52,511 bases of DNA. It comes from Candidatus Levyibacteriota bacterium (lineage in GTDB: Bacteria > Patescibacteriota > Microgenomatia > Levybacterales > UBA12049). A program made the translations under genes and the position numbers. Numbering within the stretch: the stretch's first letter is position 1; every line of letters starts with the position of its first letter. Location: contig JACQHJ010000008.1 in NCBI GenBank assembly GCA_016199085.1, positions 1-52,511 on the forward strand. The letters are read 5' to 3'. This document shows, one piece after another, positions 42,811 through 52,511 of this stretch. The notes beneath the pieces are model-generated. The model saw only the letters and a list, made by a program, of their open reading frames with translations. It had not been told where the DNA came from and made no database searches.

Positions 42811-43967
42811 AGTATTTGCAAATCTTTGCAAACATCTGTCTAGTTTTAGCATTATATTATTTAATCTATTACGTTTATCTGGGTATTGTCTCTCCTATTC
42901 CTCAAGCGGGAGACAGTTTTGACTATCATATTCCAATTGCAAAATCTATTTTAGACGGAAGCTTTCTAAGCGGCCTTGGTTTTACCAAATATCAGCATTT
43001 CTATCCTGGCACGAGTGAAATTATTAATTCCTTATTTATTCTTTTAAACATTCCCTTAACCCTTTCAAACATAATACCTTCGGTTTTGCTTGGTATCTCA
43101 TGTTTTATCTTGGGAAGAGTATACAGATTGGATAAGTACTCAGCAATAATCTTTGCATCTTCAATTTTTACCTTAAATGCGATCCTTCGATGGATGAATG
43201 CAGTCAGTGTTGACGCTTGGATAGGAGTATATTTTGTTTTAGCTTTGATTCTTTTAAAAAATCCAAACAAAACCGTTTTGTATTTTTTAAAATTAGGTGT
43301 CGTGTTCGGACTCCTAATAGGAACAAAGTATTCTGCAGTTTTGCTTTCTTTAGTATTACTTGTTTTTTATTTCAAAGATTTAATTAAAGTTTTAAATTTA
43401 AGAAACCTCATCTCCTTTTTGATTCCTTTTAGCGCACTAGGCCTTTTTTGGTATTTTAGAAATTTCTTGATAATGGGAAACCCTTTTTATCCCGTACCAA
43501 TTCTTGGATTTCCCGGAAAAGACGTTTTTAACGGTACTACAATGTTAAAAGCTACAATTAATTATCCAATAGATATGTTTAATGCAGCTTTCTCTGAGTA
43601 TAAATTGTGGTTTTTAACTGTAATTGCTGCTCCAATACTTCTATATAAAAAGAGGGTAGAGGGGGAGATCGGAAAGCTTTTACTTTTGGGAATTGTAAGC
43701 TTTATAATTTTTCTTTTTTTTCCGACAGACAATCATACCTGGGTAATGGTTTCTAGTTTTAGATATTCTTACTTTGTCTTTGTTCCGTTAATCCTTGGTG
43801 TATTTTTATATTTCAATTCTCTTAGAAAAATGAAGTGGCTCTCTTATTTTGCTATTGCCAATATGCTTGGGGTGTCTGTAATAACATACCAGCCGAAGCT
43901 GATATTGATAGTTATACCACTTGCCTTAGCTCTTGCATGGATAAGTTCTTGGCGCACAGGAAGATGA
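42807..43967 (+). CDS. Polytopic membrane protein, GT-C glycosyltransferase-like
   Basis: 'DSFDYHIP', 'GTKY', 'WYFRN...GNPFYP' resemble the product of 1..1581. Confidence 0.6.
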   Translation: MKYLQIFANICLVLALYYLIYYVYLGIVSPIPQAGDSFDYHIPIAKSILDGSFLSGLGFTKYQHFYPGTSEIINSLFILLNIPLTLSNIIPSVLLGISCFILGRVYRLDKYSAIIFASSIFTLNAILRWMNAVSVDAWIGVYFVLALILLKNPNKTVLYFLKLGVVFGLLIGTKYSAVLLSLVLLVFYFKDLIKVLNLRNLISFLIPFSALGLFWYFRNFLIMGNPFYPVPILGFPGKDVFNGTTMLKATINYPIDMFNAAFSEYKLWFLTVIAAPILLYKKRVEGEIGKLLLLGIVSFIIFLFFPTDNHTWVMVSSFRYSYFVFVPLILGVFLYFNSLRKMKWLSYFAIANMLGVSVITYQPKLILIVIPLALALAWISSWRTGR

Positions 43968-45011
43968 AGATACCTCTGCAACTATTTTATAGTTATGGAC
44001 ATTAATTGCCAGTAGATACTCTGCTGTGCTTGGAGCAGCTGCCTCAAGTCTTGCAAGAAGAAGTTTTGCCTTCTCTAACTGCACGGGCGTATATGATCTG
44101 TAATCCGAAAAGGGAGTAAGTATGTCTGCGTATATTTCAGCTTTATCCTCATACATTTTAGTAGTACTATATTTGCTGACTACATACCTGTCATACCCTG
44201 GCATTATACTACCGTAAACAAAACCATCCGGATTTAAGTGTCTATATTCAGGATCTCTTTCATATACGAACATTCCGCAATATGACGTATCTACTCCGTG
44301 GCCAAGCTCATGGATTATGACATGAGGCTTACCATTATAAAATGTATGAAGGGGAAGTATCATGGTATCGGGTAAAGCCTCGTAAACACCGGCTGTTCTC
44401 ATTCCATTTGCAAATGGGCTCTCGTCGACAATCTTAACTTTTCTAATTTCTGAAGCCCTAACAATTTCTACGGGAACAAAGTTAAAAGTACTCATAAATA
44501 TTTCTGTTCCCGATTTCAATCTCTCAAAATCCAATGAGTCAAAATCAACAGCTTTATATGGAAGAAATACATCTTTTAATTCCATTCCTGAAGGAACTTC
44601 AACAGAGAAAGAAAAATTGCTGGTAAAAGCATTTAACAGATCCAAAACCTCTCTTGTTGTTGATGCTTGGTAAAGCTGATCAAGGTAAGGTTCAACTTCC
44701 ACTAAAGTTAACCCTAATTCTTTTGCCTTATTTTGAGCGAATTGTTTAAATATTCCATAGTCTGTGCTTGGCACTTGACCCTTCCTGTTGAAAGCAAAGT
44801 CAACAATCCTTGCGGCTTCTGAAGGCACAACAGGACATGCATCTTGCAGAAAATTTTGCGCAAGTCTGGGAAGAAGAAAAGGATCGTTTGCGGAATATTC
44901 ACCCACACCAGCTGTTGATGCAATAGAAAGAGCAACGGCAGCAGACACAAAAGGCCGCATATTTCTACGCCTTACAAAATGTGGACCATTATCACGCTCT
45001 CTGTTAAACAT
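43926..45011 (-). CDS. Putative exported zincin-like metallopeptidase (orphan)
   Basis: N-terminal basic then hydrophobic segment; 'IIHELGHGVD' and downstream 'YS....EDKAE'; own promoter TTGATA-N17-TATAAT. Confidence 0.6.
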   Translation of the reverse strand: MFNRERDNGPHFVRRRNMRPFVSAAVALSIASTAGVGEYSANDPFLLPRLAQNFLQDACPVVPSEAARIVDFAFNRKGQVPSTDYGIFKQFAQNKAKELGLTLVEVEPYLDQLYQASTTREVLDLLNAFTSNFSFSVEVPSGMELKDVFLPYKAVDFDSLDFERLKSGTEIFMSTFNFVPVEIVRASEIRKVKIVDESPFANGMRTAGVYEALPDTMILPLHTFYNGKPHVIIHELGHGVDTSYCGMFVYERDPEYRHLNPDGFVYGSIMPGYDRYVVSKYSTTKMYEDKAEIYADILTPFSDYRSYTPVQLEKAKLLLARLEAAAPSTAEYLLAINVHNYKIVAEVSSSSCAPRTYPCKS

Positions 45012-45073
45012 AAGCGATAATTATATCAGTCATGTCAGTAAATATCAAACTATAGGTTAGACAAGGAAACCGC

Positions 45074-45099
45074 AAAAAAACCCCTTGCGGGGCTTTTTC
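45074..45099 (-). terminator. Intrinsic terminator (possibly bidirectional)
   Basis: GAAAAAGCCCC-GCAA-GGGGTTTTTTT. Confidence 0.8.
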
Positions 45100-45150
45100 G
45101 GGGTAATCTATTGCTAGATCTCCTGCCTTTAATACTTTCGTATTAGAGGT
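45074..45150 (-). ncRNA. Candidate small structured RNA with three GNRA-capped hairpins
   Basis: Minus strand: CCTCTAATAC-GAAA-GTATTAAAGG, GATCTA-GCAA-TAGATT, GCCCC-GCAA-GGGGT plus U-tract; directly after a consensus promoter. Confidence 0.6.
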
Positions 45151-45157
45151 AAAAAGC

Positions 45158-45186
45158 ATTTTATACTCCTAATCATACTTTGTCAA
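45158..45186 (-). promoter_or_regulatory. Sigma70 promoter
   Basis: TTGACA (45186-45181), 17-nt spacer, TAAAAT (45163-45158). Confidence 0.75.
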
Positions 45187-45213
45187 TAGGCAAAATATAA
45201 AACACAAATTAAG

Positions 45214-45471
45214 TTACTGGCGTGCTTGAAGTTTTGATTTCACCTCTTGGTTAAATGAACTGTACCATCCTTCAAAGTCCGCTTGTTTTCTTTCAATGTT
45301 TGAGAATTTACTTTTATAGATAGATTGGTTTTTGGAAATAATTTGATTAAATTCATTAAAATTATTCTCGATGTTGCTTAGTTTTGTCGAAAGAACAACA
45401 AAAAGAATTGCTATTGCTGCAAATGAGAGTATTGAAATGTAAAACCCGATAATTCCTAACTTTGACTCCAT
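45214..45471 (-). CDS. Small single-TM coiled-coil hypothetical protein
   Basis: 85 aa, N-terminal TM helix, SD AGGAG. Confidence 0.6.
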   Translation of the reverse strand: MESKLGIIGFYISILSFAAIAILFVVLSTKLSNIENNFNEFNQIISKNQSIYKSKFSNIERKQADFEGWYSSFNQEVKSKLQARQ

Positions 45472-45482
45472 AATACTCCTTT

Positions 45483-45740
45483 CTAAGCAGTCCTCATTCT
45501 TGGTGAGGATACAATGAGAGGTCTAACAAGTGTTCCTCCGCCGATTGGAACTAACCTTCTTGGTATAGTCGTCGCTACGTATACCACAGGATTTCCTTCT
45601 TGGGGTGTCGATCTTTTGTGAACAACCGTTGCTTCTACTCTTGCTCTTTTTTCATTTGGTCCTTGAAAGTATATGACAACATCTGTTCCCAGGCTTACTG
45701 TTCTTACTTTTTTAAATTCTCCCTGTCTTCTTTCCGGCAT
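45483..45740 (-). CDS. Hypothetical protein (orphan)
   Basis: 85 aa; TTGACA-N17-TAATAT 8 nt before ATG. Confidence 0.55.
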   Translation of the reverse strand: MPERRQGEFKKVRTVSLGTDVVIYFQGPNEKRARVEATVVHKRSTPQEGNPVVYVATTIPRRLVPIGGGTLVRPLIVSSPRMRTA

Positions 45741-45781
45741 AGTCGAAGATATTATCAGACTAATAATAACTTGTCAATTGA

Positions 45782-46339
45782 TTAAGGTTTTATAAAGTTT
45801 GAAGCGGTTATTACAAGCAAAACTCCAATGGTATTAAATATAAATGAAATTATAATAAATTTATAAACCTTTACTTTTGATATTCCAAGCAAACTTACTC
45901 CGATTTCATCAGGCAGGGGAGAGGCAATAATAAAGGCACCAATCACAGGCAGAGTCCAGCTGAAGTATTTTGTGTGCAAAACGTGATTAATATGATTTCC
46001 CCCTAATCTTTCATAAATACCGTCAATTTCTTTTACCAAATCATCTTTTACAAATTTATATATCGTCAAGTCTCCAAGTACTGCTCCCAAACCAGCTAGT
46101 ATCCCTAGTTCTATGGGAGAAAGTGTTTCGGCAAGAATAAGTAAAATTACGGTCGCAGTTGCAACGGTAAATGAAGACGTAAAAAAAATTCCGGCAATAA
46201 AACCACCTATGTAACCTAATTCTCCAAAACGAAGTAGGAAAGTATGGAATTGTTCGGATCTTGAAAGAATCAGTGCAAAAACAATGGAAAGGAAAAGAAA
46301 AGTCAGGTTTCTATATTTCCAATGTTTTAATAAGTACAT
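45782..46339 (-). CDS. Membrane protein (distantly DedA/VTT-like)
   Basis: About five TM segments; 'GLGAVLGD', 'IIASPLPDEIG'. Confidence 0.65.
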   Translation of the reverse strand: MYLLKHWKYRNLTFLFLSIVFALILSRSEQFHTFLLRFGELGYIGGFIAGIFFTSSFTVATATVILLILAETLSPIELGILAGLGAVLGDLTIYKFVKDDLVKEIDGIYERLGGNHINHVLHTKYFSWTLPVIGAFIIASPLPDEIGVSLLGISKVKVYKFIIISFIFNTIGVLLVITASNFIKP

Positions 46340-46444
46340 GTATTTACTATAGCAAAATATTTGTAATATTTTAAATAAACTATATACTTAATGATCATTA
46401 ATCCTATAGTTGAATTCAGGACTTTTGCATGCTAATATGTAACG

Positions 46445-47077
46445 ATGTCTGAGCTGATTGGTAAAAATCCCAAGCTTCAACCAGAATATTGGGAAGGAAA
46501 AACAATCCATGATGGTGGAGAATTAACTGATTATCCTGAATATGGAAAAGGCGAAATTGCCTTTGCAAGAGAGTCAGTAAGGGCCGTATTGGGCAATCCG
46601 CCATTCGCAATTCCCCACGAACCGGTTGCAATCTTTGAACATGGCACAACTTTTGACTCCTCTGCTTATCAACCAGGTACAGTCGTAAATCTAACCGTAG
46701 AATCATTAATAGGTCCCTTAGGCAACAATTTAGCGTTGTTTATTAGAAAGTACTGGGCATCTGTAGTGAAATCTAAGGACAAGGCTCCAGGCCCAGAATC
46801 CCTTTTAATTGGATTCAACGAATGGGTTGAGCATGTTGGATATAGCAATCGAGAAGTTAGAAGAATGAATTATGGAATAAGTCCCGTCCCTTTCCCCGTA
46901 AGTTTTAGGATTGGGGAAATTTGGAGAGACCAAGTTTCAAGTGTTGGAAATATAGAAGAGCTAAGGAAAGCTACTAGACTTGAGGTAATTGCCGTAGGTC
47001 AACAAGTAAAAAGAGATGTTAGAGAAAGAAATCCTCTTAGGAGACTACGACTCGTTCCATCTAGGTTTTCGGCTTAA
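46445..47077 (+). CDS. Hypothetical protein (orphan)
   Basis: 210-aa ORF; extended -10 TGcTAATAT 6 nt before ATG. Confidence 0.65.
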   Translation: MSELIGKNPKLQPEYWEGKTIHDGGELTDYPEYGKGEIAFARESVRAVLGNPPFAIPHEPVAIFEHGTTFDSSAYQPGTVVNLTVESLIGPLGNNLALFIRKYWASVVKSKDKAPGPESLLIGFNEWVEHVGYSNREVRRMNYGISPVPFPVSFRIGEIWRDQVSSVGNIEELRKATRLEVIAVGQQVKRDVRERNPLRRLRLVPSRFSA

Positions 47078-47098
47078 TTGTCATTAGAGACAGTGGAA

Positions 47099-47587
47099 TT
47101 ATTCTCTTTCTACTCCTCTTCCGAAGTCCTGAGCAGTCTCGGTTCCCATTAGAGTTGGTATAACCATTCCGTTCTCAATAGTTACTAATCCTGCATCAAC
47201 CATCATATCAGCCCATGATTTAATAGGTAATAGCTCAAAAGCATCTTCCTCTGTCGCTTGAAATACTTCGTTTAGCTCTCCACAGAATGCTTCAGAAACT
47301 TCATGTGCAGCTAAATAACTGTCAGGATGTGCTTCGCTGTATAAGCTGGATGCAGAATCACGCAACATTCCTGCTGCAAGAGGATAAATATGGTCAAAAT
47401 CTCCCGCATCTACTGTTCCGGCCCATTCTTCGGATATTCTGTATCTTTGTTGAAATTCCTGTCGTAATCCAGTTTGTAGTGTGGTGTCAAAAAGAATTAA
47501 GGCTCCTGAATTACCAGACTGCTCTACTCTTGTACGAACTTGTCCTAAAAATTGAGGCAATGGTATTTCTCTGTTTTGAAGTGTCAT
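47099..47587 (-). CDS. Hypothetical acidic protein (orphan)
   Basis: 162-aa ORF; TTGACA-N17-TATTTT upstream. Confidence 0.6.
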   Translation of the reverse strand: MTLQNREIPLPQFLGQVRTRVEQSGNSGALILFDTTLQTGLRQEFQQRYRISEEWAGTVDAGDFDHIYPLAAGMLRDSASSLYSEAHPDSYLAAHEVSEAFCGELNEVFQATEEDAFELLPIKSWADMMVDAGLVTIENGMVIPTLMGTETAQDFGRGVERE

Positions 47588-47673
47588 TCAAGTAACAAAA
47601 TAGCACCTAACAAATACTTTGTCAACGATAATCTGATTAGTCTGGTTCAGCAATCTAAGCATCACTTAAATTT

Positions 47674-47707
47674 GTACCGCCAAATGCTTAGGAATTGGAA
47701 CCAGATA
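47674..47707 (+). repeat. Cassette-boundary repeat R1
   Basis: GTACCGCCAAATGCTTAGGAATTGGAACCAGATA; TGTACCGCCAA (47673-47683) is identical to 51563-51573 at the tRNA-Glu 3' end. Confidence 0.8.
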
Positions 47708-47726
47708 TTGAATCTCTTAGCTTATT

Positions 47727-48179
47727 TTAAAAGTCGTCATTTTCCAGTTTCCATTCCTCAACTACATGAGAGTCTCTTGCGACAAAAGGAGATTGTGAAT
47801 GCATTCGGTAATAATGGCTTCTCTCGCTTGGTGTAAGAAGCTCACTTTTAATTGTGGCTCTAATATCTACTGTTAATCCACTTCTCCTGAATGCTGCTGT
47901 TACGCGTCTATATCTTCTGCTTCCCCAACCTGTTTGCCACTCTCCTCCATTAAATATTATATCTAAGTCTATATCCTCTCCATCTTCATATGTTCCTTTT
48001 GCATAACTTCCGCCTAGAGTAAACGCGTCTATAGATGGAATACTAGTAAGCAATGCAGCTAATATTGTAGGAACCGTTAGATAGATAGAGTGTCGACTTT
48101 TATTGTGATACCCTGCAATATATAAATGCGTTTGTTCTACGTCTGGAATTTTCCGTTTAGTTCTGTGTTCAGGCGACAT
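47727..48179 (-). CDS. Minimal nucleotidyltransferase-domain protein (Pol beta superfamily)
   Basis: 'LGGSYAKG.....DIDLD' GS...DxD motif and later 'VDI'. Confidence 0.7.
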   Translation of the reverse strand: MSPEHRTKRKIPDVEQTHLYIAGYHNKSRHSIYLTVPTILAALLTSIPSIDAFTLGGSYAKGTYEDGEDIDLDIIFNGGEWQTGWGSRRYRRVTAAFRRSGLTVDIRATIKSELLTPSERSHYYRMHSQSPFVARDSHVVEEWKLENDDF

Positions 48180-48228
48180 GGAGCATATTTTAACTCAAGA
48201 AAACTTTAATTTCAAACTATAGGGCTGA

Positions 48229-48263
48229 GCACCCCAAATGTTTCAGAATTGGAACGAGATACG
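48229..48263 (+). repeat. Cassette-boundary repeat R2
   Basis: GCACCCCAAATGTTTCAGAATTGGAACGAGATACG; 32/35 identical to R4. Confidence 0.9.
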
Positions 48264-48314
48264 AGTTTCGCTGGAGAAATGGAAAGAACTTTAAATCCCA
48301 ATCCGCAGCAACTT

Positions 48315-48343
48315 TTGACTTTAACTAAATTAGATATTAGAAT
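48315..48343 (+). promoter_or_regulatory. Sigma70 promoter for the first PurM-like gene, in the repeat tail
   Basis: TTGACT-N17-TAGAAT, 13 nt before ATG 48357. Confidence 0.6.
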
Positions 48344-48356
48344 CATTTATATCTTC

Positions 48357-49367
48357 ATGTCTATCACTTACCAAAAATCGGGAGTAAATTATAACCTCAT
48401 GGATCAGTTTAAAAACGCCTGTATAAAAGCTGGAAATAATTCTCCTCAATTAATAGAAATTCATGATTATTATCTAATTGATGTTCTTGAAGGACTGGGT
48501 AGTTTAGGCAAATTAGCTGATGATATTTATAAGCTAACTGGCAAGGACTACTATTATGAGGTGGGTTGGGGAAATGCAGCAACCGTAATAAACGATCTAA
48601 TATCCATAGGAGCTACTCCTTTAACATTAAAGCTATTCGTTGCAGCAGGAAATGAAAAATGGTTTGGAGATAAAAAGAGATGGAAGAATTTAGTTAAAGG
48701 CTTTAAGGATGCCGCAAACTACTCAAAAGCATTATGGAATGGCGGCGAAACCCAAACATTAGTAAAAGTTGTCTCTCCAGATTCTATCGTCTTAGCAGGG
48801 TCAGCTACTGGTATTGTAAAACCAAAGAGTTGGTTAATAGACGAAAACAATATTAGGGAAAACGACGATATCATATTTTTCAAAAGCTCTGGCATTCACA
48901 CAAACGGCGTCACCTTGATAAGAAAGCTATTTCAAAACAACGGAAAAACCCTAATAAAAGTAATTGAGCAGAAGACTATAATTTATAGCCCAATAATACT
49001 TAAGATTTTAAAAAATAATATAAAAATTCATTTCGCAACCCACATTACAGGTCATGGGTGGCGTAAGATTATGCGGCCTAAAAAGAATTTTGTTTACAGA
49101 ATAGATGAGATACCAACTCCTCCAGAAATTTTTAAAATTATTCAAACCAAAGCAAGTTTATCCGATTTACAAATGTATTCAGATTTTAATATGGGCGTAG
49201 GATATGCAATATTTGTTTCCCAAAAAGATACAAAGAAAGTATTAGAAATTGCAAGAAACTTGAAATTTAATGCATTTGCTGCTGGAAAAGTTGAATCAGG
49301 AGAAAGAAAAGTAATTATAGAACCATTGAATATTACCCTAGAAGGTAAATCTTTAAAAATAAGATAG
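48357..49367 (+). CDS. purM: PurM-like AIR synthase family protein, copy 1
   Basis: 'ITYQKSGVN', 'EGLGS', 'INDL...GA.P', 'GGET', 'SSGIHTNG', 'HITGHG', 'FNMGVG'; probable start 48357 rather than 48249. Confidence 0.8.
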   Translation: MSITYQKSGVNYNLMDQFKNACIKAGNNSPQLIEIHDYYLIDVLEGLGSLGKLADDIYKLTGKDYYYEVGWGNAATVINDLISIGATPLTLKLFVAAGNEKWFGDKKRWKNLVKGFKDAANYSKALWNGGETQTLVKVVSPDSIVLAGSATGIVKPKSWLIDENNIRENDDIIFFKSSGIHTNGVTLIRKLFQNNGKTLIKVIEQKTIIYSPIILKILKNNIKIHFATHITGHGWRKIMRPKKNFVYRIDEIPTPPEIFKIIQTKASLSDLQMYSDFNMGVGYAIFVSQKDTKKVLEIARNLKFNAFAAGKVESGERKVIIEPLNITLEGKSLKIR

Positions 49368-49377
49368 TTTTAAACGA

Positions 49378-49412
49378 GTACCCCAAATGTTTATGAATTG
49401 GAACCAAATACG
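49378..49412 (+). repeat. Cassette-boundary repeat R3
   Basis: GTACCCCAAATGTTTATGAATTGGAACCAAATACG; 31/35 identical to R4. Confidence 0.9.
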
Positions 49413-49511
49413 AAGCTCGCTTAAAGCATGGCATGCGTCATTAAACCCTAGCTTTAACTCGAGACGATCATATGCTATAAAGTAACTACCTTAAGCTAAT
49501 AGGACTAAGTC

Positions 49512-50627
49512 ATGACAAACGAAAACCGATCAATTACTTATGCATCTACAGGAGTTAATTACGATGCCATGGATCCTATTAAAAGATTTGCTCAAATGGC
49601 GGCAAGAACCACTTCAGGAAACTTACGAGATTTAGGTTTTCAAGAACTTGAAGCAAGTAGAGGAGAGTCAGCCCATGTTATTGATGTTGGTCCATTTTAT
49701 CTTGCAACAGTAATGGAGGGATTAGGAACGAAAAATCTTGTTGCTGACGCAGTAAGAAGCGATAAAGAGCCATCCTTTTATAACAAAATAGCACAGGATA
49801 CTGTAGCGATGATAGTTAATGATTTAGTTGTCGTTGGTGCTAGACCAATGGTAGTAAGTGCATACTGGACTGCGGGAAGCGGAGACTGGTTTGAAGATGA
49901 AACAAGATCCAGGGAATTAGCAGAAGGATGGGCTAATGCTTGCAATAAGGCTGAAGCAATCTATGGAGGGGGTGAAACACCCACCCTTAAAGACATTATT
50001 AACCCTGGGACAGTAGATTTAGCTGGATCTGCAGTAGGGATCATTCAACCTAAGAGTAGACTTACATTAGGAGATAGAATTGCAGAAGGCGATAGGATTA
50101 TTTTAGCTCCGAGCTCAGGGATTCATGCTAATGGACTTACCTTAGCAAGAAGAATTGCTTTAGAAATTGCTGATGGATATAACACCAGATTATCTGATGG
50201 TAGAACCTATGGAGAAACCCTACTACAACCAACTCCAATATACGCCAAATTAGTACGAGAGCTTTTTGATGCAGGAGTTGACATTCATTATATGGTTAAT
50301 GTGACTGGACATGGCTGGAGGAAATTAATGAGAGCTACAAAAGATTACAAATATGTCATTGATGCTATACCTCAAGTACAACCAGAGTTTGATTTTATTA
50401 AGGGACATTCAGGCAATACCCTAGAGGAAATGTATGGAAATTTTAATATGGGCGCAGGATTTGCCTTTTTTGTTCCCGAACATGCAATGGAAAGAACTTT
50501 AGCTATAGCAAAAACCAGAGCATGTATTAATTTATTAAATGCAGGGGTCATTGAACCTGGACCGAAAGAAGTTGTAATAAATCCTGTTGGAGTAAGTTTT
50601 AAAGGAGAATCATTAAGTGTAAGATAA
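49512..50627 (+). CDS. purM: PurM-like AIR synthase family protein, copy 2
   Basis: 'ITYASTGVN', 'EGLGTK', 'VAMIVNDL', 'GGET', 'SSGIHANG', 'NVTGHG', 'FNMGAG'. Confidence 0.85.
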   Translation: MTNENRSITYASTGVNYDAMDPIKRFAQMAARTTSGNLRDLGFQELEASRGESAHVIDVGPFYLATVMEGLGTKNLVADAVRSDKEPSFYNKIAQDTVAMIVNDLVVVGARPMVVSAYWTAGSGDWFEDETRSRELAEGWANACNKAEAIYGGGETPTLKDIINPGTVDLAGSAVGIIQPKSRLTLGDRIAEGDRIILAPSSGIHANGLTLARRIALEIADGYNTRLSDGRTYGETLLQPTPIYAKLVRELFDAGVDIHYMVNVTGHGWRKLMRATKDYKYVIDAIPQVQPEFDFIKGHSGNTLEEMYGNFNMGAGFAFFVPEHAMERTLAIAKTRACINLLNAGVIEPGPKEVVINPVGVSFKGESLSVR

Positions 50628-50657
50628 TCCTGTCATAACAATCTAATCTTCAATTTT

Positions 50658-50692
50658 GTACCCCAAATGTTTCAGAATTGGAATCAGATACG
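50658..50692 (+). repeat. Cassette-boundary repeat R4
   Basis: GTACCCCAAATGTTTCAGAATTGGAATCAGATACG. Confidence 0.9.
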
Positions 50693-50799
50693 TAAAAATT
50701 TGGAAAAGTGGAGAAGTATTCTTCAACTCGTGCCTAACATCTCTTAGACTTTAACTGCCAAAGTGGATTAAAAATTGTTAAAAGCCCAGGAAATATTAC

Positions 50800-51455
50800 T
50801 TATTCTATGTAGGAAAGCCTTTGTCTTCTTGTTACTCTATAAGCGGCAATGCTTTTCCATAAATCACTTATTTCATTATCTAAATTGTCAGCGGTCCTAA
50901 AAACATCACGAGTTCGCCATGCTTCACCAGGAATAGAATATTCTACAGCAGATAATCTTCTATCGTAAGCGAGAGGCTCCAATGTTCTAACTAATAATGT
51001 ATCTTTTTCAGCTTGATCCCTAGCTGGTTCTAAATCAATTATGTCATCAACGACACGCATAACTGTTTGACCAACTTGGCTTTCAGACATGCCTTTTCTC
51101 TCCAACCTCCCTTTAATATCTCTAACTTCATCAAGCACTCTTACTAATTTCGTCCTATCTTCGATACCAGTATAAGTAACGACAACACCAGTACGTAGCA
51201 TGCCCGAGGGTAAAGGCTCTCCAGTTTCTGGACGCACTTGCTGTTTTGCAACTGCGTAACTATATGTACCTAATCCCGCTTGGGTAAGACCGTCTGCTAC
51301 CGCTTGATAGAAGGATAAGTTACCTATGGGTATTAATTCATTTATTTGAACAAGGACAGGTCTTGGTCCTTCAAATGCGCTGGTTGTTCCTCCAGGTGTG
51401 GAGGAGTAGCTCCTGCTTTATGTCCAGTTTTTCGCCTTTCGCTTGGAGGTGTCAT
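50800..51455 (-). pseudogene. Orphan gene with an apparent single frameshift near 51390-51417
   Basis: ATG 51455 follows TAGAAT by 8 nt and reads MTPPSERRKTGHKAGATPP before stopping after 37 aa; the frame of ORF 50800..51237 is open from 51417. Confidence 0.55.
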
Positions 51456-51564
51456 GATTTGGGATTCTAACACACAGTAGGTTATTTTTCAACGAATAAA
51501 ACGCTACAATTTCTTTTTAAAGAATTGAAGGTTTAGATTGATATATAAGTCTAAACAAATAATG

Positions 51565-51638
51565 TACCGCCAAGGGGAGTCGAACCCCTGATTCTCTGGC
51601 TGAAAACCAGATGTCCTAGGCCACTAGACGATGGCGGC
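51565..51638 (-). tRNA. tRNA-Glu(TTC)
   Basis: Acceptor GCCGCCA/TGGCGGT, anticodon arm TCTGG-TTTTCAG-CCAGA, T-loop TTCGACT; TATAAT 8 nt upstream. Confidence 0.96.
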
Positions 51639-51676
51639 ATAAACTAATTATACCTAAATTGTGTTTTTAAGGCAAA

Positions 51677-52336
51677 CTATTTAAGTCTTTTTCTTAAGTT
51701 TTCCAATATGTCTTTAGCTGTATCCTGTCCGCCGAGTCCGAAAGCTATTCCTCCAGCCACTGCCACCATTGCAACAAGCCCTGTAAACAAGATTCTTATT
51801 AAATCGGTTGCTACTCCAAGCTGGCTTAAGACGGCAAGGATAACAAATACGTTTATTGCCCATCTGACAGCCGAAGCAACTGTTGTTGATGTTTGACTGT
51901 CAACTCCTTTGACAGATGCCAAAACTATGTCATGCGCAATTCTGGCAAAGACAAATCCAACTATTGCAATTACCGCTGCTACAAAGACATTGGGAAGATA
52001 GAATAACACTTCATTTAAAACAGTAATTATTCTAGGTAATCCCCAAACGTCTGCTGTTGGAACAAGGAAAACTAAGATAACAAACCATCTTGCAATCTCT
52101 GCAAGTATATTTGTCCATGTCAATTCATCCTTTAATTCCGGAACTCCGTATTTTTTAAGATATGTTTCCACTCTTAAAGCTTTGGAGCCGCTTATAACTA
52201 TTTGTTTTACCAAGGATCCTACTATGACACCGATTATCAAAATGATTGCTCCTGTTAAAAACCTTGGAATGAAGGAAACCGTTGCGTAGAAAGCATTATT
52301 AAAAGATGCAACTAAGGTTGTACCAATATCGGTCAT
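51677..52336 (-). CDS. TM-helix repeat membrane protein (CmpX/MscS N-terminal-like)
   Basis: Two 'F/YxPxxxxA.II..IG' repeats and C-terminal 'IAFGLGG'; SD AAGGAGGTG. Confidence 0.8.
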   Translation of the reverse strand: MTDIGTTLVASFNNAFYATVSFIPRFLTGAIILIIGVIVGSLVKQIVISGSKALRVETYLKKYGVPELKDELTWTNILAEIARWFVILVFLVPTADVWGLPRIITVLNEVLFYLPNVFVAAVIAIVGFVFARIAHDIVLASVKGVDSQTSTTVASAVRWAINVFVILAVLSQLGVATDLIRILFTGLVAMVAVAGGIAFGLGGQDTAKDILENLRKRLK

Positions 52337-52435
52337 TTAATTCACCTCCTTTCATCTTTTTGATTACACAAGTTATATATTTTTTTGTTTACGCTTGTCA
52401 AGAAGCATTACAAATTGGTATAATTTACTCTACGC

Positions 52436-52507
52436 GGGCCGTTAGCTCAGCGGTAGAGCAGGAGCCTTTTAAGCTCTTGGTCACAGGTTCGAATCCTGTA
52501 CGGCTCA
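52436..52507 (+). tRNA. tRNA-Lys(TTT)
   Basis: Acceptor GGGCCGT/ACGGCTC, anticodon arm GGAGC-CTTTTAA-GCTCT, T-loop TTCGAAT. Confidence 0.96.
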
Positions 52508-52511
52508 CAAA

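Follow-up and report, generated by a model that had tools for sequence, protein, structure and literature searches.

Near one end of a 52,511-nt contig from a Candidatus Levyibacteriota bacterium (JACQHJ010000008.1, assembly GCA_016199085.1; the whole contig is the window referred to below), four direct repeats beginning at 47665, 48219, 49368 and 50648 (R1 to R4) open the same short reading frame beside a tRNA-Glu gene. We conclude that they are probably the P' arms left by elements that inserted at tRNA-Glu and whose large serine recombinase (LSR) gene spans its own attachment site, attP, the repeated peptide being the tail of the LSR. The first-pass annotation, made from the letters of the contig, had already placed attP inside the 3' end of a recombinase gene whose tail is swapped on integration. 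Relatives of the window bear this out with a natural fusion of LSR and peptide, with LSR genes that read into antisense tRNA, and with three elements that have a compatible core and frame.

In the excised circle, the LSR open reading frame (ORF) would cross a 7-nt core, GTACCCC or GTGACCC, read as Val-Pro or Val-Thr, and the enzyme would end in about 30-35 conserved residues of the form Q-MFxNWNQIRxSLEQWKxIL.P...NYH. On integration, the LSR gene would come to lie beside the tRNA, read the antisense tRNA and acquire an arbitrary tail, and the helix-coding piece (hereafter the module) would be left stranded at the opposite end. Within the module, the first ~25 nt would serve as a DNA half-site and the codons that follow would be conserved as protein, the tail helix being predicted to pack on the helices after the coiled-coil and on the coiled-coil base. 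The window would now hold four such stranded tails, two of them shortened early, which mark where single-gene cassettes without an LSR adjoin in a stack at tRNA-Glu.

A repeat search of the window joined the four copies in one family with the common frame MFxNWNQIRxxLxxW, and all four ORFs read exactly as the first-pass annotation had written them. R1 opens at ATG 47684 with MLRNWNQILNLLAYF..., its family match ending at codon 8 and its frame continuing to 47836. R2 encodes MFQNWNEIRVSLEKWKEL before its stop (48238-48294), R3 encodes MFMNWNQIRSSLKAWHASLNP...AIK (49387-49485), and R4 encodes MFQNWNQIRKNLEKWRSILQLVPNIS (50667-50747). The L-x-x-W pattern is indeed spelled with differing Leu codons (CTG, CTT and TTG) and with TGG, and the V-P-Q-M core claimed for R3 and R4 is present ahead of both as GTA CCC CAA ATG, the R2 counterpart being GCA CCC CAA ATG. 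The core of R1, GTACCGCCAA, has the same letters as the 3' end of tRNA-Glu, and TGTACCGCCAA is common to the two. Read antisense from this core, the tRNA is open as VPPRGVEPLILWLKTRCPRPLDDGG, as had been described, with a stop three codons upstream. Because a DNA profile of the module spans 48228-48349 at R2 and 47677-47717 at R1, R2 is a whole module whose ORF has been shortened by an internal stop, and R1 is a stump.

The four repeats are far above chance expectation. A 32-nt consensus with up to 3 mismatches matched R2 to R4 (3 hits) and nothing in 100 shuffles, and a degenerate 18-mer matched all four repeats exactly, against a shuffle mean of 0.57 that was counted with up to 2 mismatches. 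The 939-kb, 10-contig genome to which the window belongs holds these four copies and one 2-mismatch match on contig C10, and no others. The module was also considered as a tRNA or a known RNA and rejected as such, the only Rfam matches at E<=5 over 46000-52511 being the two tRNAs.

The link to recombinases comes from relatives. We built a peptide profile from 13 peptides and searched it against 1.84 billion representative proteins, a search that the first-pass annotation had proposed. The 19 matches comprised 16 ORFs of 31-79 aa, two giant repeat proteins that we took to be spurious, and a 166-aa protein, P0016, in which an LSR C-terminal region continues in frame into the peptide (...NFNLVTHMFQNWNQIQSSLEQW...YYH) and which ends ...SSSFELIEALNTQDFNLVTHMFQNWNQIQSSLEQWNNLLHPTNASNLYSYYH. 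Over its first ~130 residues, P0016 shares 55-69% identity with the C-terminal regions of five proteins; four of them have lengths of 503-520 aa and carry Resolvase and Recombinase domains, joined in two cases by Zn_ribbon_recom. After a common ...NFNLV, most of these homologues run into sequence of the antisense-tRNA type (GFEPST, REFESR, GLEP). The tail of the excised state is conserved across LSRs that are only 26-29% identical.

A P0016-homologous recombinase was matched at E<=1e-30 in 52 of the 245 genomes of the order. LSR ORFs running into antisense tRNA are common there: of the nine best LSR loci, six have an ORF that terminates within an antisense tRNA, one lies on a contig that breaks off at the core, and two have ORFs that read elsewhere. 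One recombinase (locus L088, genome G129) carries the tail predicted for antisense tRNA-Glu, VPPRGVEPL, ending ...TTLVPPRGVEPLIPWLKTRCPRPLDDGGIT with the terminal residues VPPRGVEPLIPWLKTRCPRPLDDGGIT. Recombinases that end in both foreseen peptides were therefore found, P0016 having the NWNQI type and L088 the antisense-tRNA type. P0016, the LSRs with antisense-tRNA tails, and the frames of the elements in genomes G129, G036 and G051 described below together show an ORF that runs unbroken through the core in attP form and acquires another C-terminus on integration. A search with P0016 yielded 26 pattern matches on viral contigs, none of them a relative, and four loci on metagenome contigs: two solo modules, an LSR at tRNA-Lys, and an LSR whose tail is short and not of tRNA sequence.

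Those three intact elements, of 5.9-7.8 kb, have the module at the distal end, the LSR gene at the tRNA end, and the same core. Their attL and attR frames are compatible and would fuse LSR to module on excision; the window, in contrast, has no LSR gene on the same element as a module. The 6.7-kb G129 element (L110, G129:C1:229300-238600) sits at the window's own chromosomal site, defined by tRNA-Glu, an MscS-like gene and tRNA-Lys. Its order is module, Piwi-domain protein (684 aa), SIR2-like protein (397 aa), small ORFs including a helix-turn-helix protein (HTH_3, 69 aa), and an LSR of 515 aa reading into the tRNA, followed by tRNA-Glu(UUC), the MscS-like gene and tRNA-Lys. The G129 module reads VPQIIENWNQIRSSLEQWQTIIRPSLTPAFVY, without an ATG, having ATT ATA where others have ATG TTT. 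The elements of G036 (7.8 kb) and G051 (about 5.9 kb) are built in the same way at tRNA-Glu(CUC), with the core GTGACCC at both ends, and their excision would join ...TTLV to TQMF.NWNQ.... The G129 element resembles a small Argonaute-type defence island moved by a recombinase, and one GIY-YIG ORF abuts the attL core in G036. Module and LSR also lie on one contig and strand in G155 and G159, which we set apart from the three elements with checked core and frame.

Modules are spread through the order and their cores follow the neighbouring tRNA. With one genome scanned per species, 28 stretches carried a module, mostly in Candidatus Levybacteria/Levyibacteriota or Patescibacteria, and a profile search of the order found the module in 51 of 245 genomes at 70 places, with stop codons inside the match in 17 places. 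At 15 loci, the window included, a tRNA on the opposite strand (Glu-UUC, Glu-CUC, Arg-UCU or Lys-CUU) is located 0.2-2.3 kb downstream, its 3' end toward the module; the remaining fetched module loci had no tRNA inside the fetched flanks. The 7-mer core of the module agrees with the tRNA 3' end at 7/7 positions in seven of the 15 loci, at 6/7 in four, at 5/7 in three and at 4/7 in one, and it changes along with the tRNA, as with GTGAGCC at tRNA-Lys; by this comparison, a short core is common to module and attB at the crossover. A T-arm-like motif starts at nt 22 in the module (TGGAAYC) and at nt 17 in the tRNA (TCGAAYC) at 14 of the 15 loci. The ZD motif of serine integrases is described as shifted 5 bp toward the centre in attB relative to attP (PMC3783163), and by this published geometry the first ~25 nt of the module fit a predicted LSR attP half-site. 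Small GIY-YIG nuclease ORFs adjoin modules in two genomes (L041, 4486-4962 and 8731-9027; L042, 6014-6403), and at L116 (G067:C1:439000-442500) the module lacks a stop and continues in a longer open frame (297 aa listed).

Several features of the module would also be accounted for if its conservation were purely at the DNA level, as recombinase or regulator sites or a promoter with an incidental open frame. Codons 1-7, which mimic the tRNA T-arm, are almost invariant at all three positions (most of them were fixed by our search patterns), the module 3' end, ACTACCAyTAGGAATTAGAAT, is conserved as DNA in two frames (...NYH-stop and ...TTTGY-stop), and module homology persists past premature stops, for example in R2. 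Codons 8-21 do not follow this pattern. Among the 26 intact of 33 collected copies, diversity was 0.48, 0.30 and 0.55 at codon positions 1, 2 and 3 (permutation p = 0.004), position 2 being the least variable and position 3 the most. The uncorrected ratio of nonsynonymous to synonymous differences (pN/pS) in the same copies was 0.57 in frame and 0.97 and 1.47 in the two other frames, being below 1 in the ORF frame only, from pairwise comparisons that lack phylogenetic independence. All six Leu codons occur at Leu-12, and Ser and Arg are each spelled from both of their codon families. The first-pass annotation had suspected selection on protein from the differing Leu codons; the substitutions now show apparent protein-level selection on codons 8-21, and we regard a purely DNA-level explanation as very improbable. 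The module 3' end motif is found at 49487-49509 and 50750-50776 in the window and just after the peptide stop at L040, L041, L044 and L047; within it is a -10-like TAGAAT, and the motif is similar to the D-arm of tRNA-Gln read antisense (CTACCATTAG).

Protein-level selection on these codons would also be expected of a free-standing microprotein family, carried with each cassette and unrelated to recombination, which the first-pass annotation had named as its alternative and which most of the profile matches, being short ORFs, would fit. The frame, however, is always continuous with the core Val codon, and several of the 16 short matches, the longer calls, extend upstream through V-T/P-Q. P0016 joins the peptide to an LSR, the peptide always lies at an att core matching the nearby tRNA, and the start codon is not universal, being absent from the G129 module and replaced by a residue other than Met in 5 of the 17 short protein matches that we fetched. 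These results weaken the proposal, to which we assign very little likelihood.

A complex model places the tail of the LSR near the coiled-coil base. In an AlphaFold2 model of the G129 LSR (mean predicted local distance difference test score, pLDDT, 81.3), the coiled-coil helices span residues 337-384 and 390-415 and are followed by helices 421-454, a hairpin and a helix at 473-482; the tRNA-coded tail, 483-515, has a pLDDT below 50. When the G129 module tail was modelled as a separate chain against LSR residues 150-488, the complex scored 0.69 and the best of three controls 0.01. Of solved complexes, 116 of 157 passed the docking mark, as did 2 of 215 mismatched pairs; these counts are approximate since our own alignments were used. 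Docking runs agreed in at least 61% of contacts, with a partner pLDDT of at least 60. The modelled tail contacts LSR residues 347-354, 419-453 and 472-477, that is, the base of the outgoing coiled-coil helix (337-384) and the post-coiled-coil helices, and its invariant Trp and Leu are buried. A model of P0016 (alignment A4) has a tail helix at 132-153 with modest confidence, the means of 10-residue blocks being 49, 71 and 62. In the MAFFT alignment A4, the N-terminal part of the peptide was paired with an internal LSR motif, VFEEWD, which we treated as a misalignment. To our knowledge, no structure of the post-coiled-coil region of an LSR has been solved. Directionality factors have been placed near the coiled-coil base, where a single helix is described as essential (PMC11722253). 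Because the tail helix docks in the model near this same base, it is plausible that loss of the tail on integration alters the stability, activity or direction of the enzyme. The directionality switch that the first-pass annotation had suggested would draw its support from this predicted docking.

The stranded tail might also be at work itself, starting from its own ATG at attL and binding a tail-less or incoming LSR in trans as a directionality factor or decoy. Of the 17 short protein matches, which were found without the DNA pattern, 12 have the ATG at a common position, many orphan modules retain the full ~32-codon ORF, and the complex model passes with the two partners as separate chains. 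The published directionality factors are themselves small helical proteins with predicted binding near the coiled-coil base (PMC11722253). On the other side, no Shine-Dalgarno-like or purine-rich ribosome site precedes the ATG (GTACCCCAA-ATG), the intact G129 element has replaced ATG TTT, and 7 of the 33 collected copies are truncated or diverge early, so that we consider a working peptide distinctly unlikely. A more elaborate proposal joins both states: the tail would be a detachable control helix that sets the coiled-coil for integration in the circle and is lost on insertion, and the free peptide, from attL or from orphans like R3 and R4, would re-bind in trans. We think this unlikely as a whole.

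Several points weigh against our interpretation of R1 to R4 as LSR tails. No cognate LSR was found in the window or in its own genome, which is 94% complete; the window contig has no integrase and no PF00589 match. The genome's integrase families amount to two PF00589 matches (contigs C10 and C2) and one PF00239 match (C1), the PF00239 protein being 22-25% identical and sitting at tRNA-Gln. The link to an LSR therefore rests on relatives. P0016 is the single natural fused ORF among the representative proteins, and it is a 166-aa fragment. Two of the LSRs, at L106 and L079, read into non-tRNA sequence without a long tail, the first ending 11 residues after the Val and the second in a shifted frame; L106 showed no sign of circularity. 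The 5-bp offset between attP and attB is one observation, its positions being fixed by tRNA structure and by the search pattern, and the ATG that starts nearly all copies collected as DNA was part of the search patterns. The docking is a model, made with two chains that are the two parts of a single polypeptide, and pairs of this kind tend to pass. Among the 51 module-bearing genomes, 38, the window's own included, lack an LSR match at E<=1e-30 to the recombinase P0022, and many of their ORFs are intact; the overlap of the LSR and module lists is 13 genomes, a count limited by genome incompleteness and the strict threshold. Orphan modules that keep intact ORFs could have a use of their own. 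Finally, the formation of stacks, with new units entering an occupied site, is left unexplained by canonical LSR rules.

With no cognate recombinase in the window or genome, R1 to R4 are apparently relics, stranded and partly decayed tails. The C1 protein just mentioned (L008, 1423-3045) is a 540-aa LSR of a different family whose last ~20 codons read through antisense tRNA-Gln(CTG), and an inverted copy of its codons 491-523, 97% identical, lies just upstream of its start. At L079, a T-arm-like motif stands at attB-type spacing with no tRNA call.

Integron cassettes and tandem accretions of integrase-less elements (cis-mobilizable elements, CIMEs) are arrays of single-gene units with a recombination site and a fixed entry point. 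The window likewise holds an array of single-gene units bounded by a recombination site, and its sites are LSR-type halves. We rejected an integron attC array, there being no IntI, no PF00589 match on the contig, and no conserved R/L boxes by eye (no systematic search was made).

The layout in which an integrase gene spans its own attP is already published for DsiB and for Mx8 IntP; our literature searches aimed at an LSR with a swapped tail turned up none, these two being precedents of layout. In the account of the Dehalococcoides ssrA islands by McMurdie et al. (2011, PMC3146451), the gene of the DsiB serine recombinase (~540 aa) overlaps its own att site and is perhaps complete only in the circle, and islands follow one another in tandem beside a small RNA gene, every joint bearing a short direct repeat, as here. 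As described there, the DsiB islands differ in target (ssrA), in insertion at the T-loop, in a 20-bp repeat and in a 6-gene integration module, whereas most units here carry no recombinase at all. The overlapping part of DsiB is divergent and its authors questioned whether it encodes a functional product, whereas the tail described here is conserved, with apparent purifying selection and predicted docking.

For phage Mx8 IntP/IntX, attP is reported to lie inside the integrase coding sequence, integration giving a new 3' end and altered integrase behaviour (PMC6070905); that enzyme is a tyrosine recombinase of a proteobacterial phage, which is not known to form cassette stacks. In the integration-dependent immunity of mycobacteriophages, attP lies inside an ORF whose viral and prophage forms differ by 20-35 C-terminal residues (PMC3694055, PMC8092301). 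Several attB sites there overlap tRNA 3' ends, and the swap senses the integration state, but by those descriptions the split gene encodes a repressor, the integrases are tyrosine enzymes, and what is removed is a degradation tag of the ssrA type. Here a recombinase gene is split, and its tails finish in NYH or GY, lacking an ..AA tag. In directionality factors such as SPbeta SprB, a short helix near the coiled-coil base is described as deciding direction (PMC11722253), and the tail is likewise predicted to provide a helix there, of ~20 residues; those factors are encoded by separate genes and act in trans, whereas the tail helix would be covalently joined to the enzyme while the element is a circle and be lost from it on integration.

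Large serine integrases are in routine use for genome engineering, and the structural basis of their choice of direction is still being worked out. A widespread natural family of such enzymes whose integration costs them a conserved helix, predicted at the coiled-coil base, would offer a simple and testable control of activity or direction that needs no separate factor. For annotation, the arrangement accounts for repeated ~30-codon mini-ORFs and odd recombinase tails beside tRNA genes in Patescibacteria, and the modules delimit the accessory-gene stacks of these very small genomes. The window alone is a modest finding, its copies being relics and the layout having precedents. Were the conserved tail a control helix that re-binds in trans, old cassette joints would act as regulators of or decoys for incoming elements, and the stacks of these ultra-small bacteria would amount to a cassette system resembling integrons but run by a serine recombinase.

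Table 1. Tail modules, cargo genes and putative relics in the cassette stack beside tRNA-Glu (positions in the window).
Feature	Position	Strand	Basis or remark
R1, tail-module stump	47675..47717	+	DNA module profile matches 47677-47717 only
Cassette 1 cargo, nucleotidyltransferase-domain protein, 150 aa	47727..48179	-	PF01909, E 1.8e-5
Putative LSR gene 3' relic, ILTQENFNFKL then two stops	48187..48219	+	Precedes R2; resembles ...ALNTQDFNLV of P0016
R2, tail module complete as DNA	48228..48349	+	Module profile; ORF stopped at 18 codons
Cassette 2 cargo, PurM-like (AIRS/AIRS_C) protein	48357..49367	+	Pfam domains
R3, tail module	49376..49509	+	Module profile; ORF 32 codons, canonical ...NYH end missing
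Cassette 3 cargo, second divergent PurM-like protein	49512..50627	+	Pfam domains, repeat comparison
Putative LSR 3'-end relic, short, NNLIFNF	50637..50657	+	Before R4 core
R4, tail module	50656..50776	+	Module profile; ORF 26 codons
Cassette 4 cargo, 145 aa, no Pfam family	50800..51237	-	90% identical in same-genus genome G004
Cassette 4 right end, imperfect palindrome GTTTAGA..TCTAAAC	51531..51556	+	Sequence
tRNA-Glu(UUC), attB	51564..51638	-	3' end on + strand = GTACCGCCAA, shared core

R1 to R4 delimit single-gene units (Table 1), and beyond cassette 4 the order is tRNA-Glu(UUC), an MscS-like gene and tRNA-Lys. Ends related to the right end of cassette 4 occur in other genomes as TTAGATTG-N6-CAATCTAA and translate like an LSR ...F.LI... 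end. A 2.9-kb contig of G004 is 95% identical to window 50658-51555, covering R4 and its cargo, and continues with 1.9 kb that make up two more module-plus-gene units before it rejoins the window at 51563, in the 3' part of tRNA-Glu. The cassette insertion or deletion between the window genome (G000) and G004 falls exactly at the core. Because G004 holds two extra units at this point, gain or loss of units appears to take place precisely at the core next to the tRNA.

Contigs from four DNA runs of one groundwater study break at the modules, and their joints fit a co-occurring G004-like strain. Over window 49260-49443 in run X1, the summed contig word depth was 79.5 at the start of the R3 module against ~8 beside it, with loose ends on both sides; because of this difference in depth, the first ~33 nt of the module are present in many other contexts in that community.

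The neighbouring cargos of cassettes 2 and 3 are divergent PurM/AIR-synthase-like paralogues with one 87-nt stretch that is 70% identical. We considered the module peptides as precursor or leader peptides of ribosomally synthesized and post-translationally modified peptides (RiPPs) served by the PurM-like genes and rejected this, the module-side cargo differing in every genome and being about half the time on the other strand. Between Obg with its neighbour and R1, positions 43926-47587 hold ORFs without a Pfam family (361, 85, 85, 185, 210/96 and 162 aa). The left flank of R1 resembles an LSR 3' end, with AATTTG ahead of the core, and for this reason the variable stack may continue leftward past R1 through joints that have decayed. 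Within cassette 4, the window and G004 (L047) differ by a run of 7 mismatched nucleotides in a ~15-nt stretch at 50688-50702, inside the tail ORF, which reads IRKNLEKW in one and IRASIEKW in the other. Since these mismatches cluster inside an otherwise 95% identical cassette, the pattern suggests gene conversion between modules.

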